40,776 nucleotides of DNA from a virus, in the UHGV virus genome UHGV-0210060; one strand, given 5' to 3'. The position numbers were made by a program, and so were the translations under genes. Positions 3,835 through 25,254 of the stretch are shown piece by piece (position 1 is the first letter of the stretch; each line of letters begins with the position of its first letter). A model generated the notes under the pieces. It was not told where the DNA came from. It did no database searches and worked only from the letters and a program-made list of their open reading frames with translations.

Positions 3835-4041
3835 TCAACTCACAAAACGCCACGCCATTTTTGCTACAGCGACAGGCATAACACCGATAATCACCCAGAC
3901 AAATGCAGCGCCAAACAACGTATACCATGGATCTTTACCGTCATTCACAAGGCGAATGTAGCTATGCAGAACAATAAAAAACGTTAGAAGAATCCATCCA
4001 ACGCCAACGCATTTGAGTGCGACGAGCATAAACTCAACCAC
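3835..4041 (-). CDS. small hydrophobic protein (68 aa, predicted membrane)
   Basis: Hydrophobic segments GVGWILLTFFIVL and AAFVWVIIGVMPVAVA; first gene after the primase-helicase. Confidence 0.5.
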   Translation of the reverse strand: MVEFMLVALKCVGVGWILLTFFIVLHSYIRLVNDGKDPWYTLFGAAFVWVIIGVMPVAVAKMAWRFVS

Positions 4042-17477: not shown

Positions 17478-20183
17478 CTACATTGCCATTAATATAAACA
17501 TAGCCAATTCGTCATAACGAATTCCGTAGCGTCCTCCTGCTTTTTTTACAAGAATCATATCTCCTGTTTTATATTGAGAATAAATTTTCTCACCTGTATC
17601 AGGATCTGTGCTCTCTTCAGTTATCACCTCTTCATCCCATACGTCAGGCCATTCATCGTAACACCAAAAAGCATATTGCTCAGGGTTTAAACCATGCTTT
17701 CTAAGAATATCCCCTACGGTTTGAGCGCCAACGCCAAAATGATACCTGGACGACTCAATTCCTTTGTTATTAATTGAGTCATTAAATTTAAATTTATAGA
17801 TGACTGACTTTATTTCAATAGCGGCATCACGCTCTGCATTAAGAATATCATATCTTGTTTTAAGAGTTTCATCTGATGTATTGATTGACCCGGTTCCTGC
17901 ATAAATAACAGAGCATCTGTTTGATGGCTGTCCAATGGCTTTAACATTATCATCAACAGGAGCTATTTTATTAGCATCTGCCAACCACCAGTCTGTTCCA
18001 TCAGCGTGACCGATTCTTACTCTTATCCCACTTCTAATATTTAAACTTCCAGTATTACTCTGTAAATTACAATCTCCTGACGTTGGTCCAAGCAGTACAG
18101 TTTTACCAACACCACATACTACTCTGGCATTTCCTTTTTGTGATACGAGTCTTGACTCACCTCCTGACTGCTCAGGAAGAGATTTATGGTCTATAAATGC
18201 ATCGCGGGGGTTAAATACACCGTCTCCGGAATTATATCTTCCTCCTGTATAGTTGTTAAATACAGGACCCCAGTCAACGCCATTGCCTTCAGAGCACCCG
18301 ACCATTCTAAGCACTCGAGTATTCCCTGCTGCATATGGTAATGAGCTTGTTGATTGCCGGGAAGCTATCATACGTGCTCCATAACCAATAGCATTACCAC
18401 CATTTATAGTTACATATGCTTGCTGGCTTTCGAAATATGTACTGTAAAAGTTCATATTTCCACAGTCATGTAGATGAATAAGAACATCATCCCATCCCTG
18501 AATGGTTCCTGCATGTACCTGTACACCGCGAACTGGTTCCCCTGAAACCTCCATACACTCTGATGGTCGGCTGAATGGTTGAGACAGGTATTGCGATGTG
18601 GCAAGCAGATGTGTGTGGTGATACAGGCTGGTAATGTAGCAATCGAAAAATTGCGTTCCCGCCATACCAAAGTTATCTATGTCATTTCGCCGTATAGTAG
18701 AACCTACTGTTGCCTCAGAAGCGTTAGACACTCCAGTAAATACTAACTTATCACCGGATACGGATAATCCTGAATAAGTGAAATTCCTGCCTCCAGATCT
18801 TAAAACCCCGGACGTTTCGAAGGTGTGGCTTGCTGACCATGGTATTTCGATAGTGCTGGACGTTACCGCTGTAATTCGGAATACATCATGGGCGCGGATC
18901 GAAATACCCTTGAATCCTTGGAATCTACAGTGATAATAGTTTTCATCCTCGCCCTGAGCGGCCAGCGTGCCAGATACAGGAATGTTCGTTTTTAAAAGTG
19001 CCGTCTTGCGCCAGTATCCAACCACCTGCAAATTGCGGTATTCATTGCCAAAAGACGCACGTGACCAAATACCTACATCCCACTCATCGCCAAGACCGGT
19101 ATTTGCAATGTCTTTATAACCATCCAGCCCATTGAAATATGGAACAACACGAAAGTTCTCAAGGCGAACACATCCTGTCTCAGGCATCAATATTGCGGCA
19201 GAGAATGGTTTAAGCGTGGCTCTTGTAGTCCCATTAGCATCACCGTTAGTAAAATCCAATAAATCATATGATGACGCAGGTGCCGTTGTTGTATACGGGT
19301 CTTCGGAAGATGGGTTAGAAACCACACCACCACTAACATCCATATTAGAAACACAATCTACAGTATATTTTTTATTTCCTACCCCGTACATCAGGAATGT
19401 GGTCCCTGTGGTAATATCAGGAGCAAATGTTGCAGTATATCCTGAGACCCATTTGCCCACACCAAGACAAATTATCCCACCACCAGAAACAGGTGTTAAC
19501 GTATCCGTTATTACATACGCATTATCAGTACCATAAATAACCTTTCCTGTGTTAAGGGCAGCTTGCCACGCGGCCCAGTCTATTGACTGAGATAATGAGT
19601 CAACAAAAGGATATAAGGATTTTGCTTCAGAAATTGAAGAAAACCACTCAGATAATGGATGATATTTCCCATCCCCAATTGCTCCAAATTGTTTTACATT
19701 TAAGAAAAGAGCATTGTTTTCATGCTGAGTTATAGTTGCAGCCCCGGTAAATGGCTGCCTTACCCCAATTAATGCATCACCTTTTGAATCATCATTAATG
19801 TATGCTCCTGATTGAGATAACTGCTCTTTGAAGTCTGGGCCAAACTGATCTGGATCGTATTTTAATACATTTGGAAAATAAAACTGCTGAGTGCCATAAG
19901 CATCGTAAACAGCCATAGAATGGCCTTGCACGGTAACGAATTTGGCAATCTGTCCGTTATATACCGGATAACCAGCAGCGTTAATGATGATGGGTTGCGA
20001 AACAGGAGCGTGAGAACCGTCTTCGTTCTCCACATAAACCTGAATCTGGTTTTCAGGATTTACCGGGTCAGTGTCAATTTTACCGATATAAATTTTGCCA
20101 TTGGCTACGGCTTTAAAAGAACGAGCCATAGTGAAGAGTTGCGAAGGCATGCTTACCACAACATTGGCTGTAATGTCTGTCAT
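17478..20183 (-). CDS. tailspike (P22-type head-binding domain, beta-helix domain, C-terminal intramolecular chaperone)
   Basis: 901 aa; N-terminal ~110 aa match the P22 gp9 head-binding domain ([45 protein letters not shown] ... [12 protein letters not shown] ... NVLKYDPDQ); [10 protein letters not shown] glycosidase-like start; [11 protein letters not shown] near the C-terminus. Confidence 0.85.
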
Positions 20184-20361: not shown

Positions 20362-21258
20362 TCAGTAGTTATGTACTGAAGGAGGTAATTCTTTATTCTT
20401 AAGTCTCATCCATGCGGAAAGATTCGTTGGTCCGTCTGGCTCATTGATATCAACATCTCGTGTGTGATTGATTAAAACGTCTCTCGCCATTCCGATAACA
20501 TACGAGAATTCATGACCGTAGTCGTAGCATCTGCCGGAATAGTTCGATTGAATTTGTTTTAGCGCCGGATACAGTTCGCGGAATAATGCCTGTGAGCGGT
20601 TGGCATAATCCCATAACCATACAAGGCTGTTTGCTTCTTTTGCAGAAAGCTCGTTCTTCTCTTGTTTGCCGATGAACTCGCCTTCAAGCACTACCCTGTG
20701 GATGTACTCTACGGCTTGCGGTATCTGAGATGCATCAAGCTCTTCAATACTTTCCACATTGAAACGCTGATGAATCATTGCATAAGCTTCTGGGTACATT
20801 AGATGCTTTTTGCTGACTAGCATATTTACAGCATCACGAAGCGGAGTCCTGTCATCAACAGATGTTTTCTTCCGTGCATTTGCTGCCTCTCCCTTTGTCC
20901 AGTAGTCATGCAGCACAGTAAAGCATTCTTCCTGGTACTGAATCAGTTTATCGCGGATGTCAGCACGAACTTTCTCAGGGTTGATGCTGAACAGCCATCC
21001 ATTTAACTTCTTCAAAGGAAGGCACAGTAGCTTACGAAGCTTACCATCAGCGGCAACCATATTCATATGAATACAGTTGAACTTATCTAGTTGTTTCATA
21101 AGTTTTTGTTGCTGAGTACCCCAGCTCATTCCGAGGTTTTCAACGATTGGCTTCATCGCAACATATGCAACTCCGGCAGCCATGGCGGTGATAATCTGCT
21201 GACCATTGAAAGGTACGTAAGAGGTGTTCACTGCTTCTAAAATTGCTATACTATTCAT
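20362..21258 (-). CDS. ant: antirepressor Ant (P22 AR-type)
   Basis: From internal ATG 21258 (RBS GGAGAAAAA): [22 protein letters not shown]... resembles the P22 antirepressor N-terminus; immI context (arc upstream, tailspike downstream). Confidence 0.75.
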
Positions 21259-21320
21259 GTTGGTTTTTCTCCACGGATTTACCGACAACCGAAGCCCTGA
21301 CTGTTCCAGCAGTTGGGGCT

Positions 21321-21542
21321 TCAACGTTTTTGTAAGTCACTGTAGCTATAAAGCCACTGACCACTCATTTTTGATTTGATTGACTCTACTGAGTCACGGC
21401 AAGGAATGATTCCGCCTGACATCATTCTGATTTCCGTAAATTCACCACTCCTTATCGATTCAATGCCATCAATGTTAACTAAAGATTTACCTCTACCACG
21501 TGCATTCTCATAGCCAATCTCATCAACCTCAATAAACCTCAT
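21321..21542 (-). CDS. hypothetical protein (73 aa) between arc and ant
   Basis: ATG overlaps arc stop (ATGA); no motif recognised. Confidence 0.45.
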
Positions 21543-21691
21543 ACCGTTATCCCCTCTCTCTTCAGGCTGTCCAGCAATCGCTTAATCACTTCCGAGTTAA
21601 ACGACCGGCATTCTTCTTTGGCCTTTCCTGTAATCGCATCTTTTAACGACTGCGGCATCCTTACCAAAATCTTACTTATTTCTTTCTCCAT
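21539..21691 (-). CDS. arc: Arc-like ribbon-helix-helix repressor
   Basis: Start at Met13 of the listed ORF (GGAGGG RBS); KILVRMPQSLKDAI..ECRSFNSEVIKRLLDSLKREG parallels P22 Arc (FNLRWPREVLDLV..NGRSVNSEIYQRVMESFKKEG). Confidence 0.7.
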   Translation of the reverse strand: MEKEISKILVRMPQSLKDAITGKAKEECRSFNSEVIKRLLDSLKREGITV

Positions 21692-21773
21692 GTTACCCTC
21701 CACACAAACAACTCTTTTCGAATACAAAAGATAGCAAAGTGAGTATATCTAGTCAAAATTTTTTTGCATACAC

Positions 21774-21805: not shown

Positions 21806-22057
21806 ATGGCAAAGGGTGTGTCAATTTCTCCAACTACGGTAAGAATCCCTGAATCTTTACGCGAAGCTCTTGCTGTCAGAGCATCAAAAAATGGTCGCTC
21901 TGTTAACTCCGAGATCGTCATGATTTTGCAAGCCGCGATTGATGAAGATAGGTCGCCAAAGTCAGTTGAGTCATTTGCTCAGCAAGAAGCTGACAAATTC
22001 AAAGAGGCGCTGCTTGAGACGCTGAGGAACATGCAAGAAAACAAAAAACCCACCTGA
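21806..22057 (+). CDS. mnt: Mnt-like ribbon-helix-helix repressor
   Basis: 83 aa; VRIPESLREALAVRASKNGRSVNSEIVMILQAAI parallels P22 Mnt (FRMPMEVREKLKFRAEANGRSMNSELLQIVQDAL). Confidence 0.75.
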   Translation: MAKGVSISPTTVRIPESLREALAVRASKNGRSVNSEIVMILQAAIDEDRSPKSVESFAQQEADKFKEALLETLRNMQENKKPT

Positions 22058-22067
22058 AGGTGGGTTT
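22046..22067. terminator. bidirectional intrinsic terminator between mnt and the convergent 328-aa gene
   Basis: AAACCCACC-tgaa-GGTGGGTTT flanked by an A-run and a T-run; loop contains the mnt stop codon. Confidence 0.7.
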
Positions 22068-22072
22068 TATAA

Positions 22073-23059
22073 TTAGATTTCTGGTTTTATTCTTCCAAAA
22101 ACCTTTTCTATTCCTTTTTCGTATTCTTCTCTTGTCTCGCTCATCGCTGCGACACCAAGAAGCTTACCGATATGCTGACGCAAAGCCTTGACACCAATTT
22201 CAGAAAGGAACAGGTGCAACTTATCAGATTGTTTTCCGTTCTCGTCTCGGCTGGCTCGAATCTGTTCAAGGATTTTACCTTTACTCTTTGCTAGCGGAGT
22301 GTATATCTGCATGTTGGTTAGTTGCCCAAAACGAATTGGACGTCCTTTCTCTGGCCTGTTCAGGCCGTACAGTCGATACCACTCCTCATATAGCTCATCT
22401 GGAAATTCTTTTTCATACTGCCTCGCCTCTTCACGAACAAAGGCCTTGAAGGAATCAATAACCTCCTGTACTTCAGGTCGATATCCTGCAATAGCATAAC
22501 CAAGTCCTTTAAGCCCTGCTTTCATTGATGCGGTAACAAGTCTTTGGGCAAGGCTGGCAGATTTTGATCTTGAAGGCGGTAGTGCGCCAGCTCGATCGGC
22601 ATTAATCATTGCTGTGGCTATATCACCGATAAGGGCAATATCGTAACCGTGAGCCTCATCAGCGAGTGGATTTGGGGCTGAGTTTGGGACCGGACTTCTC
22701 CATTGAAAAATAAGAGGTTTTTTGAATTTTTCTAGCAGAAATGGATCAACAAAATCAGCCATATAATTCGTATTTAGAAAACGGTCTACATCCCTACCAT
22801 GCTCACCGATTCCTAGTAATTTAGCCAGACCAGTTTTACTAACTACAACCGTTTTATCATTATCATCAAGTACGTAACATTCTGCATCAATGCCGAAATC
22901 ATCAATGAAGTTACCCTTTCTGATCGCTCTTAGTGGCTTACCTTCCCATCGTTTTGCCGCTGCTTTCTTTGCTATTTCAGAACGCTGCTCTTTAGTCAGC
23001 GACTTTGCGCGAGCGATCCCGCCCTTAGCTTTCCCTTCGCCACTTTTCTTTTCAGTCAT
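22073..23059 (-). CDS. hypothetical protein (328 aa), possibly P63C-domain-like, basic N-terminus; sieA-position moron
   Basis: Start at Met26 of the listed ORF, embedded in an operator-like repeat array; N-terminus GGIARAKSLTKEQRSEIAKKAAAKRW. Domain call is from memory and weak. Confidence 0.55.
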   Translation of the reverse strand: MTEKKSGEGKAKGGIARAKSLTKEQRSEIAKKAAAKRWEGKPLRAIRKGNFIDDFGIDAECYVLDDNDKTVVVSKTGLAKLLGIGEHGRDVDRFLNTNYMADFVDPFLLEKFKKPLIFQWRSPVPNSAPNPLADEAHGYDIALIGDIATAMINADRAGALPPSRSKSASLAQRLVTASMKAGLKGLGYAIAGYRPEVQEVIDSFKAFVREEARQYEKEFPDELYEEWYRLYGLNRPEKGRPIRFGQLTNMQIYTPLAKSKGKILEQIRASRDENGKQSDKLHLFLSEIGVKALRQHIGKLLGVAAMSETREEYEKGIEKVFGRIKPEI

Positions 23060-23152
23060 AATGCAAGCACCTTTGTTGTGATGTATGCTTGCATTATATG
23101 CACTGTACACACATACAAGCAAGCATAAAACCAAAACAAAATGCTTGCATTA
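23058..23152. promoter_or_regulatory. operator-like array: four copies of ATGCTTGCAT-type motif in alternating orientation
   Basis: TAATGCAAGCA (23058..23068), ATGCTTGCATTAT (23083..23095), CAAGCAAGCAT (23117..23127), ATGCTTGCATTA (23141..23152); the first copy overlaps the start codon of the 328-aa gene; CATATAAT -10-like element on the minus strand. Confidence 0.55.
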
Positions 23153-23215
23153 CAACCGCGCTACTCCAACTACACATTATCATCTGGTATCCTGCACAAA
23201 ACTAAGGAGGTTGGT

Positions 23216-23404
23216 GTGAAGAAAAAATTTGTAAACGTTGCAAAGTGCGCAATTTTTATATTTTTTATGATCTTTTACGGATTTAGTGCCGGAGAAGGTT
23301 TCGATCGTGATGCCAATGCATTCAGTTTCTTTTGTCTGTCTATAGTGGTCATAATTGTATGGGTGGAATTAAAGCAAACATTGTTTCATGTGCTAGGGAA
23401 ATAA
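23216..23404 (+). CDS. small membrane protein (62 aa, two hydrophobic segments)
   Basis: GTG start 6 nt after AAGGAGG; CAIFIFFMIFYGF and FFCLSIVVIIVWV segments; divergent from the 328-aa gene. Confidence 0.45.
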   Translation: MKKKFVNVAKCAIFIFFMIFYGFSAGEGFDRDANAFSFFCLSIVVIIVWVELKQTLFHVLGK

Positions 23405-23421
23405 CCATCCATGGCATTTAG

Positions 23422-25254
23422 TCACTGCTGTGTTGCCTCAGTGGCAAGCAGCGGTCTGATGGCATTTGCAGCTTTGCTTAACGCTCTTTCATAAGCTGGC
23501 GTTCCAGCTTTAGTGTTTGCCAGACGTAAGAGCGCATTCCTAGCCATAGGGCTTTCATAAACCCTCGACATAAGGCCAATCCCTGTTTCCCCAGCCAATA
23601 GCGCGCCTCCGTTTTTTAGGTTACCAATAACCCTTACCAAAGGCGCGAGTGTCATGCCAGTCTTCGTCACAACATTAGCCTCAGATGCTCTTTTGGTAGC
23701 ATCGAGAATAGATAACATCCCCTCTATCTCTTTTCCGTTCTTCCCACCAAATACAGTTTTAAACACCTGACCATTTGCTTGTTTTTGCAGCTTGCCAAGC
23801 TCGGTCATCATTTTCTGAGGGCTGTCACCTACCTTGTCAGCTATTTTGCTGATATATGCCGCCCTTAGCATGTCTTTACCTTTTTGATCGAGTTTCCCGT
23901 ACAATCGAGCTATATCTGACCCATATTGTCCATACACAATGGTATTTACAGCCTCGGGAGTTAAATCTCCTTTGTTTAGAACGTTTTTAAGGCGCGTTTG
24001 AGTTGCATGTGTTGCCATTTTTGCATAATCAGCTTTTCCCGCTCTCCATGCTGAAGCATCTTTTGGGCTAAGTCCTTTCGCTATAGATTTACTAAGGCTA
24101 TTGGTTAGCGAGTTGTAGACCCTGTCGACCATTGTTTGCGACATTGATGGCAGAACTGTACGATCGCCTTTTACGTCAATGCGGAACTGAGTTCTCAGCT
24201 TATCAAGTAACTCAAAGGCATCATCCCCATTTGTTATCTCCTGAATGGCATTCTTATAATCATTAAGCGCAGAAATGGTCTGTGTGTCAGAAACACCTTT
24301 AAGTTTCCCAAGTTCGTTTACTGCTCCGTCGATAGCTCTTATGGCGCCACTTGTATCAACTGGCTTTCCAACCATTCTTCCTGACAGGTTGTTTAGTTTT
24401 GACTTGGCTAACGATTTTTCCCTCGCAACGCCTGACTTTAGACTATCAACTACTACAGATGGATCGTAGTCGCCGTATTTTTCGGTGAAGCGATTAACAA
24501 GCTTGGTTCTAGCATCCTGCTGTGCGGCTCTCATTGGTCCAGTCCCAGCGATGACTCCTTCTGAGTAACCCTGCAGTTGATTGCCAAGTTTTGTTTTTGG
24601 AGGAACTACATCCGATGTCATAACTGGTACATCTGCCGCAGCGGCACGCTTGAGCAATTGCTGATCTGCGGGTGATATTTCGCCACGAACAGCAGTAATT
24701 CCACGCCCTATTCCCTTTGCTGCTGCGGAAAGAACCCCCTGAGCGGCAAGGTTGACTCCGGCATTTTTAGCTGCATTTTGTGCGAAATCGCCTTTCTGAT
24801 TTGCGGCCTCTGCCAGTGATCCAATAGCCATGCTTCCTGCCGTTCCAACTCCTGGAACTAAATACCCGCCAATTGTTTCTCCAGCTTGAGCGTAGGGGTC
24901 TGTCGGTCTGTCTACTGGACGATAAACATCATCCAAAACCTTGGGGCCACCAAGCCCCTGACTGATTGCATTAATCAGGCTTGCGCCGCCCTGCAATACG
25001 TCAAATGGTATGTTTACCAGACCACGACCAGCCTGCTCTGCAATTTGCCCTGCACTTTGACCACCTGTGAGCCAATCGCCAGCTTGTTGCATCAATGATG
25101 GTTCTTCACGTGCTGGTTCATTATTGGCCTGATTAACTGTTTGTTGCTGAACAGCCTGACCAGCAAAATACTCATCAATGGCGGTGCCAATATCTTCCGT
25201 GCTCGTACCATCAGGGAAGGTAAATGTCTTACCGTTTGCAGTTACTTTCATCAT
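23422..25254 (-). CDS. ejection (DNA-transfer) protein, P22 gp16-like
   Basis: 610 aa (P22 gp16 ~609 aa); last gene of the 4-10-26-14-7-20-16 order; Gly/Ala-rich. Confidence 0.7.

Follow-up and report, generated by a model that had tools for sequence, protein, structure and literature searches.

A P63C-family cargo gene with a predicted four-site operator array beside a small membrane-protein gene on the sieA expression platform of a P22-like virus genome

Two genes between gene 16 and mnt

The virus genome UHGV-0210060, of which a stretch of 40,776 nucleotides was analyzed (the window), is P22-like (Lederbergvirus-type) and carries its late genes on the minus strand; we describe here two genes that occupy its interval between gene 16 and mnt. 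The first encodes a 328-amino-acid (aa) protein of the P63C family and lies in the immI regulatory region; the second, its divergent neighbour at a distance of 156 bp, encodes a 62-aa protein with two hydrophobic segments (Table 1). Four short repeats stand at the start codon of the P63C gene. An earlier account made from the letters alone, hereafter the sequence-only reading, had pointed out both open reading frames (ORFs) and the repeats, and all were found where it had placed them: the 328-aa protein has a basic N-terminus and no hydrophobic segments, the four motifs span 23061-23150, and the 62-aa ORF has its AAGGAGG and its hydrophobic segments, roughly at aa 5-25 and 33-50. That account had also taken the 328-aa gene for a moron, and the description holds, as the gene is inserted cargo with a predicted promoter and a terminator hairpin of its own, is missing from the same place in P22, and recurs as a cassette in the E. 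coli phage vB_EcoP-611R6 and in Salmonella and E. coli prophages.

Table 1. Features of the window and of the comparison loci named in the text (positions in comparison loci follow the locus number)
Feature	Position	Strand	Remark
Tailspike gene	17478-20183	-	
ant	20362-21324	-	P22_AR_N and P22_AR_C domains
73-aa ORF between arc and ant	21321-21542	-	4-base overlap with each neighbour
arc	21539-21727	-	
mnt	21806-22057	+	
G+C-rich hairpin, likely terminator	22045..22068	both	between the stops of mnt (22057) and the P63C gene (22073)
328-aa P63C-family gene	22073-23059	-	ATG 23059..23057; AAGGTG Shine-Dalgarno (SD) 23073..23068
Pfam P63C domain, helical, codons 205-292	22184..22447	-	PF10546
Alpha/beta domain, weakly Bro-N/KilA-N-like, codons 43-160	22580..22933	-	predicted local distance difference test (pLDDT) 80-92 over most, AlphaFold (AF2)
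Basic N-terminal arm GKAKGGIARAKSLTKEQRSEIAKKAAAKRW, codons 9-38	22946..23035	-	two predicted helices; proposed sequence-specific DNA-binding element
Predicted operator site D, gene-strand GTGCTTGCAT	23061..23070	-	one base from the ATG, overlaps the SD
Predicted operator site C, gene-strand ATGCAAGCAT	23085..23094	-	covers the predicted +1
Predicted transcription start	near 23086	-	
Predicted -10 TATAAT	23093..23098	-	read from the sequence
Predicted operator site B, gene-strand ATGCTTGCTT	23117..23126	-	contains the predicted -35
Predicted -35 TTGCTT	23122..23117	-	inside site B, 18 nt to the -10
Predicted operator site A, gene-strand ATGCAAGCAT	23141..23150	-	furthest upstream
sieA-type promoter for the 62-aa gene	23164..23193	+	-35 CTCCAA 23164-23169; 18-nt spacer; extended -10 TGgTATCCT 23185-23193
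sieA expression platform (extended -10, leader, AAGGAGG, GTG)	23185..23218	+	34 bp identical to P22
62-aa gene, two hydrophobic helices	23216..23404	+	GTG start; AAGGAGG 23204-23210
Gene 16	23422-25254	-	convergent with the 62-aa gene, end at 23422
Transposon elements, examples among L016-L087	L018 3973-6275; L022 4036-6560; L057 2432-6264		
Small arm protein genes, examples	L018 5969-6208; L025 3452-3685	-	
ST104 orf23	L103 3417-4496		array present, preceded by a terminator; downstream of cI
Phage Si3 P63C gene	L108 1459-2331		directly after a cI-type repressor gene; neither arm nor array
933W L0095	L102 3417-4466		distant P63C paralogue, nin region, just upstream of roi

The 328-aa protein matched the Pfam P63C domain (PF10546) at aa 205-292 with 52.3 bits (cut-off 26.1; E 9e-14), and its match to phrog_2384 spanned the whole protein (aa 6-327, E 1.4e-92); the P63C domain was matched by all 43 aligned family members. 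The search returned 1422 homologues, which were full-length in every case among the matches listed. An identical protein (P0001, 100%) occurs in Salmonella enterica. Of the 5426 complete E. coli genomes in RefSeq, 95 had the cassette, under the label 'P63C domain-containing protein', the name already carried by identical and near-identical copies. The 328-aa gene is an annotated member of a known, uncharacterised family. The domain takes its name from the C-terminus of the Myxococcus phage Mx8 protein p63 and is said to have been first defined in the survey of Bro-N/KilA-N-type regulators by Iyer, Koonin and Aravind in 2002. In the literature we found P63C only in passing mentions in phage-related papers and no functional study. 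A longer version of the protein, started from a TTG (353 aa), was considered and rejected, because the ATG aligns with M1 of all 42 aligned homologues.

The AlphaFold model of the protein (mean pLDDT 71.6) falls into three parts: a basic arm with two helices of low pLDDT (aa 11-20 and 23-37), an alpha/beta domain, and a helical C-terminal half. Residues A16, R17, R26, A30, A34, R37 and W38 of the arm are invariant across 43 sequences. Among the Foldseek matches in BFVD, Bro-N, 'Repressor domain' and KilA-N proteins prevailed, with weak E-values, the best short match having a probability of 0.91 and a template-modelling (TM) score of 0.51, and this suggests that the alpha/beta domain may be Bro-N-like; sequence searches found no Bro-N domain. 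The best named BFVD match was Mx8 p63, a weak one (E 4e-3, probability 0.94). The profile and structure searches proposed by the sequence-only reading thus supplied a family, P63C, which has no assigned function, and no solved structure, as both a sequence search and a profile search of solved structures gave nothing meaningful. Neither the 328-aa nor the 62-aa protein matched any NCBIfam family, or any PADLOC-DB v2 family at E up to 1. That account had named a match to a known virion or enzyme family as evidence against it; P63C was the sole family matched.

A search for ATGCWWGCAT with at most one mismatch found the four sites of the array, in the order TGCAAGCA/TGCTTGCA/TGCAAGCA/TGCTTGCA, with plus-strand centres AA/TT/AA/TT and start-to-start spacings of 24, 32 and 24. 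Just three other matches occur in the 40.8-kb window, and of 1000 first-order Markov simulations, one produced four sites within 100 bp. The sites overlap the predicted core promoter of the P63C gene itself, a layout kept in 51 loci; the first two bases of site C are also the last two of the -10 hexamer. At the other end of the gene, the terminator scan found the hairpin to be followed by a T-run on the minus strand. This one hairpin is terminator-like for both of the convergent genes, mnt and P63C, and overlaps the stop codon of mnt.

The 62-aa protein belongs to phrog_21338 (no assigned function, E 6e-44). The promoter of its gene was located by alignment with the annotated P-sieA of P22-pbi and was not called by a generic promoter scan. 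In a megablast search against phages, positions 23185-23218 were 100% identical to P22 and its relatives, so that the 62-aa gene starts exactly where sieA starts in P22; the orf59a/t-mnt interval of P22 is the part whose place the 328-aa gene takes. The alignment of this platform (window 23185-23218, L003 1501-1534, L004, L005, L001) places it before four different ORFs, those for SieA, the 62-aa protein, a 134-aa protein with a hydrophobic N-terminus in vB_EcoP-611R6, where the GTG is kept, and a 161-aa lipoprotein of Salmonella prophages (lipobox LLAGC), where the platform is shared up to the SD and the GTG is not. It is thus a fixed expression platform with exchangeable membrane-protein or lipoprotein genes.

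SieA proteins have 162-164 aa, three predicted helices and a conserved FxRYPxEAxxFNK motif (PMC10883804). The 62-aa protein has two hydrophobic segments and no significant homology to SieA (BLASTP E 0.076); the alignment concerned pairs its residues 11-32 (23246-23311) with residues 132-158 of P22 SieA, 11 of 27 positions being identical, and the latter region is the one that holds the cytoplasmic motif (PMC10883804). The 328-aa protein has no hydrophobic segments, belongs to another family and coexists with SieA in L004. The sequence-only reading had placed the 328-aa gene in the sieA position, and here it must be corrected, since that slot holds the 62-aa gene. Judged by its platform, the 62-aa gene, and not the 328-aa gene, is the positional analogue of SieA.

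The two genes also keep different company in other genomes. A protein identical to the 328-aa protein is encoded next to a genuine sieA in L004 and next to the 161-aa lipoprotein gene in L005-L008, and in L009, which also encodes it, no gene is called there; a homologue of 52% identity from an E. coli prophage (L010) has no divergent partner. Conversely, unannotated copies of the 62-aa gene, 95-97% identical, occur in phiv205-1, UPF_BP1 and JEP4 without P63C, and genes other than P63C lie there between the 62-aa gene and mnt. In vB_EcoP-611R6 conservation takes in the 328-aa gene and its array and reaches as far as the platform, with the 134-aa gene beyond it. The array accompanies the P63C gene only and ends 13 bp upstream of the sieA-type -35. 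Because their pairing is conserved in neither direction, the two genes do not form a unit; these comparisons show two independent cassettes that abut here.

Conservation of the array and co-variation with the arm

For a broader view, one genome per species was scanned, which gave 80 loci with full-length homologues at 41-73% identity from Enterobacterales, Beta-, Alpha- and Gammaproteobacteria, Acidobacteriota, Myxococcota, Bacillota, Chloroflexota and others. Upstream regions were examined in 72 cases (the window and 71 genomes of Acidobacteriota, Myxococcota, Pseudomonadota, Bacillota and others), and 51 of these contained a chain of four TGCAAGCA/TGCTTGCA sites. All but one of the 51 arrays had the polarity AA/TT/AA/TT, and the spacings were 22-25, 30-33 and 23-25 bp. 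Information content was about 2 bits inside the 8-10-mers and about 0 in the flanks, with two exceptions: a TA placed five and four bases ahead of site C, and the purine-rich SD that precedes site D. A -35 of the form TTGCAn lay inside site B with a spacer of 17-18 nt in 42 of the 51 arrays, in 35 the last base of a TAnnnT hexamer was the first T of site C, and the ATG overlapped site D in 29, the two generally overlapping or abutting. An exact three-site pattern searched in IMG/VR hit 55 contigs, 54 with a P63C homologue directly adjacent; the remaining contig is cut after 44 codons, and those read as a P63C-type N-terminus. The phage P63C cassettes encode no other candidate binder. The sequence-only reading had called the 328-aa gene operator-controlled, and an array that is kept with the gene family far beyond chance makes such control very probable.

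The arm and the sites change together. In most loci the arm reads IA(K/R)KAAxxRW and four TGCAAGCA sites are present. The same combination was found in orf23 of Salmonella phage ST104, even though its core is only 32% identical. In nine Acidobacteriota-type loci the arm reads AAKxLSxLGAxKGG...IARAA(I/V)(Q/E)ARW; TGCAAGCA is absent there, and TACTTGC/GCAAGTA together with GAAGTCAAG is found in eight of the nine. An arm with IARAGAxARW goes with GCTTGACA/GCTAAGCA (L016, L064 and Burkholderia phage DC1), and one with ...RAKKAVAARE with two copies of GTTAGATAT in phage vB_PL1. L0095 of the Stx2 phage 933W has a degenerate arm (...SSRKAVAAKK) and three ACGTGCA repeats at its start. Lastly, homologues without the arm have no array: this is the case in L067, L069, L073 and L083, and in phage Si3. 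The armless genomic homologues belong to four different lineages, have unrelated N-termini, and look like separate losses. In these sequences, then, arm class and operator class vary together and are lost together.

Carriage by transposons and temperate phages

In 31 genome loci the divergent upstream neighbour of the P63C gene was a ~290-aa DDE transposase of the IS1 family (PF03400, 25.5 bits against 24.1), and in about 20 loci a convergent ~80-aa protein, bearing the same arm as its C-terminus, was encoded downstream. Transposase gene, P63C gene with four-site array, and small arm gene make up a unit of about 2.26 kb, with DNA identities of 65-73%, for example between a deltaproteobacterial and an Oscillospiraceae genome. 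The ends of the elements were found by comparing loci, a generic inverted-repeat search having missed them; they are inverted repeats GGTAGTGnnTCAGTTTGAA of the GGnnnTG type, and perfect 8-bp target duplications flank 18 elements. Because of these ends and duplications, the units are bona fide, recently mobile elements of 2.3-3.9 kb in several phyla. The window holds only the cargo cassette, without a transposase or element ends: a search for GGTAGTGnnTCAGTTTGAA ends in it gave nothing credible, only two chance matches with four mismatches. Carriage as IS1 cargo is thus seen in the relatives and not here.

The C-terminus of the small protein (KNPAAVALGRLGGxKGGKARAxKLTxEERxEIAKKAAxARW) duplicates the N-terminal arm of P63C. 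Its relatives number at least 7989; most are on contigs of 1-4 kb, and some are labelled 'histone H1'. The small protein could compete for the P63C operators. In the transposon copies the start codon of the transposase gene lies inside an inverted repeat of ATGCTTGAG (for example L018 4863-4905), a motif two bases off the P63C operator, which suggests that expression of the transposase may be tied to the same or a related binder.

Temperate phages carry P63C genes at several other places. Repeatedly, as in Klebsiella prophages, ST104, Si3 and L097-L099 (6001-6969), they lie directly downstream of a cI-type repressor gene, the position at which lambda carries rexAB; other cargo positions are between Q and the lysis genes in Enterobacter, inside a tail cluster, and in immI, as in the window. 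P63C proteins are common in prophages, among them the Stx phage 933W, ST104 and the P22-like prophages of Salmonella and E. coli.

Two further observations concern the surroundings of the locus. The 73-aa ORF between arc and ant matched no family; it is annotated as hypothetical in vB_EcoP-611R6 as well, occurs in other prophages (L010), and is absent from P22. Also, some E. coli P22-like prophages have a gene for a ClpP-like protease (PF00574) directly after mnt, in this same interval (L010 5047-5583, L100 671-1207).

Interpretation and comparison with known systems

The reading that we favour, with a probability of about 0.68, is that the locus consists of two independent cassettes, a P63C cargo gene that would repress itself through its arm, and a small membrane-protein gene on the sieA platform. 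The 328-aa protein would bind its own promoter, aa 9-38 recognising the 8-10-bp near-palindromes TGCAAGCA/TGCTTGCA. Occupied sites B and C would block RNA polymerase at the -35 and at the -10 and +1, respectively, and sites A (about 24 bp upstream of B) and D might add cooperativity or a roadblock. This would keep the level of the protein in the lysogen low and buffered, with its weakly Bro-N-like domain and the helical P63C region acting as the effector. Negative autoregulation is probably the most economical reading of the layout, and it is from the sequence that we infer binding, repression and the start of transcription; that arm and operator classes change and disappear together lends binding and repression indirect support. 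Such a cassette would need no other encoded factor, in keeping with the finding of the gene by itself at several classic cargo positions.

Several points weigh against this reading. Every regulatory claim in it derives from sequence. The arm is modelled at a pLDDT of about 50-60, Pfam scans, run on the isolated N-terminal arm and on three of the small arm proteins, found no family, and a generic sigma-70 scan did not call the proposed P63C promoter. The arm and operator classes partly follow phylogeny, so that the independent events of co-variation are fewer than the loci. In several Salmonella genomes (L005-L008), a 56-bp deletion between two direct-repeat ATGCTTGCAT sites (about 3900-4000, equivalent to 23085-23140 of the window) takes out the -35 along with two operators, so that two remain; the gene is intact there and its protein 100% identical, and the full array is therefore not indispensable. 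Finally, as a single strand the array (111 nt) could fold into a long RNA or DNA hairpin of -52.3 kcal/mol (z -7.6).

This last point leads to an alternative that we regard as unlikely, in which the array acts mainly as RNA: hairpins between complementary 8-mers (A:B and C:D, or A:D and B:C) would hide the SD and the AUG and silence translation from read-through transcripts, for instance late-operon ones from gene 16. In addition to the stability of the fold, the gene is co-oriented with the late operon, the terminator scan found no terminator between gene 16 and the array, and the spacers are slightly more complementary than the control (0.48 against 0.42), an effect that is small and too weak for a selected RNA helix. 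However, since the -10 is fused to site C, the gene's own mRNA should start at the end of that site, without A, B and most of C, and in the transposons the upstream gene is divergent, which leaves no read-through. The spacers show almost no compensatory pairing, conservation being confined to the 8-10-mers, each of which is near-palindromic, and Rfam gave only sub-threshold matches to miRNA-precursor models, which reflect the hairpin potential. A secondary role of the array in silencing late read-through translation in this phage is possible.

The sequence-only reading had combined the two proteins into one co-regulated divergent exclusion or defence module at the sieA locus, and this we now consider improbable. 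The genes are indeed adjacent and divergent, a protein bound at site A could affect the nearby sieA-type promoter, and the locus is a known exclusion locus (PMC10883804). Nevertheless, the pairing varies both ways across phages and prophages, a mosaic joint at about 23185 separates the cassettes, array and P63C gene occur in insertion sequences and at other prophage positions without any such membrane-protein gene, and PADLOC had no match for either protein.

Slightly less probable again is that the sites are bound by a different protein, be it Mnt, Arc, C2/Cro, a host factor, the transposase or the small arm protein. The IS1-family relatives do encode a small protein with the same arm next door and have the related ATGCTTGAG half-sites around the transposase start, and the 328-aa gene does sit among the immI regulators. 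Against this, the array persists across phyla, and also in prophage cassettes devoid of transposase, small protein and immI genes, its loss or change coincides with loss or change of the arm, and no ATGCWWGCAT match lies near regulatory genes elsewhere in the window. That the repeats play no part in regulation and are a scar of recombination or transposition, left by a mobile-element end or an integration site, is very improbable: relatives are indeed transposon cargo, and direct-repeat sites did recombine in L005-L008, but the terminal repeats of the elements differ in sequence and are absent from the window, and the array occupies an internal position whose distance from the start codon is fixed, overlapping promoter elements.

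As for what the putatively self-repressed protein does, tight self-repression is typical of regulators and of potentially harmful proteins. A DNA- or repressor-directed, antirepressor-like regulator is the function that we would name first, tentatively and at somewhat under even odds; exclusion or defence is a possibility of lower rank, as is some other function altogether. The prophage positions and the carriage by transposons point to a function useful to mobile DNA in general. Our best guess is an effector that serves mobile elements at large, as a DNA- or repressor-directed regulator or in exclusion. The occurrence of the same cassette on an active transposon lineage in many phyla likewise suggests that its use is to mobile DNA generally and not to one phage.

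In the available literature there appears to be no description of the conserved array, of the arm that co-varies with it, or of the association with transposons. One may speculate, with some reserve, that the ~30-aa arm (GGxARAxxLTxExRxxIAxKAAxxRW) and the four-site array form an undescribed portable self-regulation module, with a recognition sequence that co-varies with the arm, of large weakly Bro-N-like/P63C proteins, exchanged by active IS1-family transposons and temperate phages across at least 8 phyla, that the effector stands for a new functional class of mobile elements (directed against competitors or in defence, or regulating induction or transposition), and that the small arm protein is an antagonist at the same operators. 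In any case, the array and the arm that tracks it provide the P63C family with a defined candidate site for binding, an element predicted to read DNA, and naturally occurring variants of specificity. Also, a sieA promoter, leader and start serving as a fixed platform for swapped small genes clarifies the genomics of P22-type phages, and it makes the 62-aa gene, rather than the 328-aa gene, the candidate SieA analogue for exclusion.

With respect to known systems, the 328-aa protein stands within Pfam P63C and PHROG 2384, by a significant hidden Markov model match and by full-length homology; the family description as we found it includes neither the N-terminal arm, nor the operator array, nor the association with transposons. 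Among insertion sequences with passenger genes, the IS1 family offers the parallel, as P63C relatives with the same array are located inside elements of 2.3-3.9 kb; one IS1 subgroup in ISfinder reportedly reaches 4.6 kb. The 328-aa protein bears no resemblance to SieA of P22, an inner-membrane superinfection exclusion protein. The 62-aa gene, in contrast, shares with sieA the extended -10, the leader, the SD, the GTG and the position convergent with gene 16, and likewise encodes a small membrane protein, which is shorter and has two helices instead of three. With the Bro-N/KilA-N/Ant-type regulators the 328-aa protein, as modelled, appears to share a build of N-terminal alpha/beta domain and exchangeable helical C-terminal domain, and its gene likewise lies in a prophage regulatory region, the P22 Ant gene being 750 bp away.

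The closest regulatory parallels are lambda CI and Cro at OR and P22 Arc and Mnt at the ant and mnt promoters, where several near-palindromic sites likewise cover the gene's own -35, -10 and +1. Multi-operator autoregulation of this kind is a known logic for buffered, low-level expression. The P63C sites differ from these operators in alternating strictly in polarity at about 24, 31 and 24 bp, in having one site on the start codon, and in keeping their sequences across phyla. Moreover, their putative reader would be neither a helix-turn-helix nor a ribbon-helix-helix, but an arm of ~30 aa at the N-terminus of a large protein.

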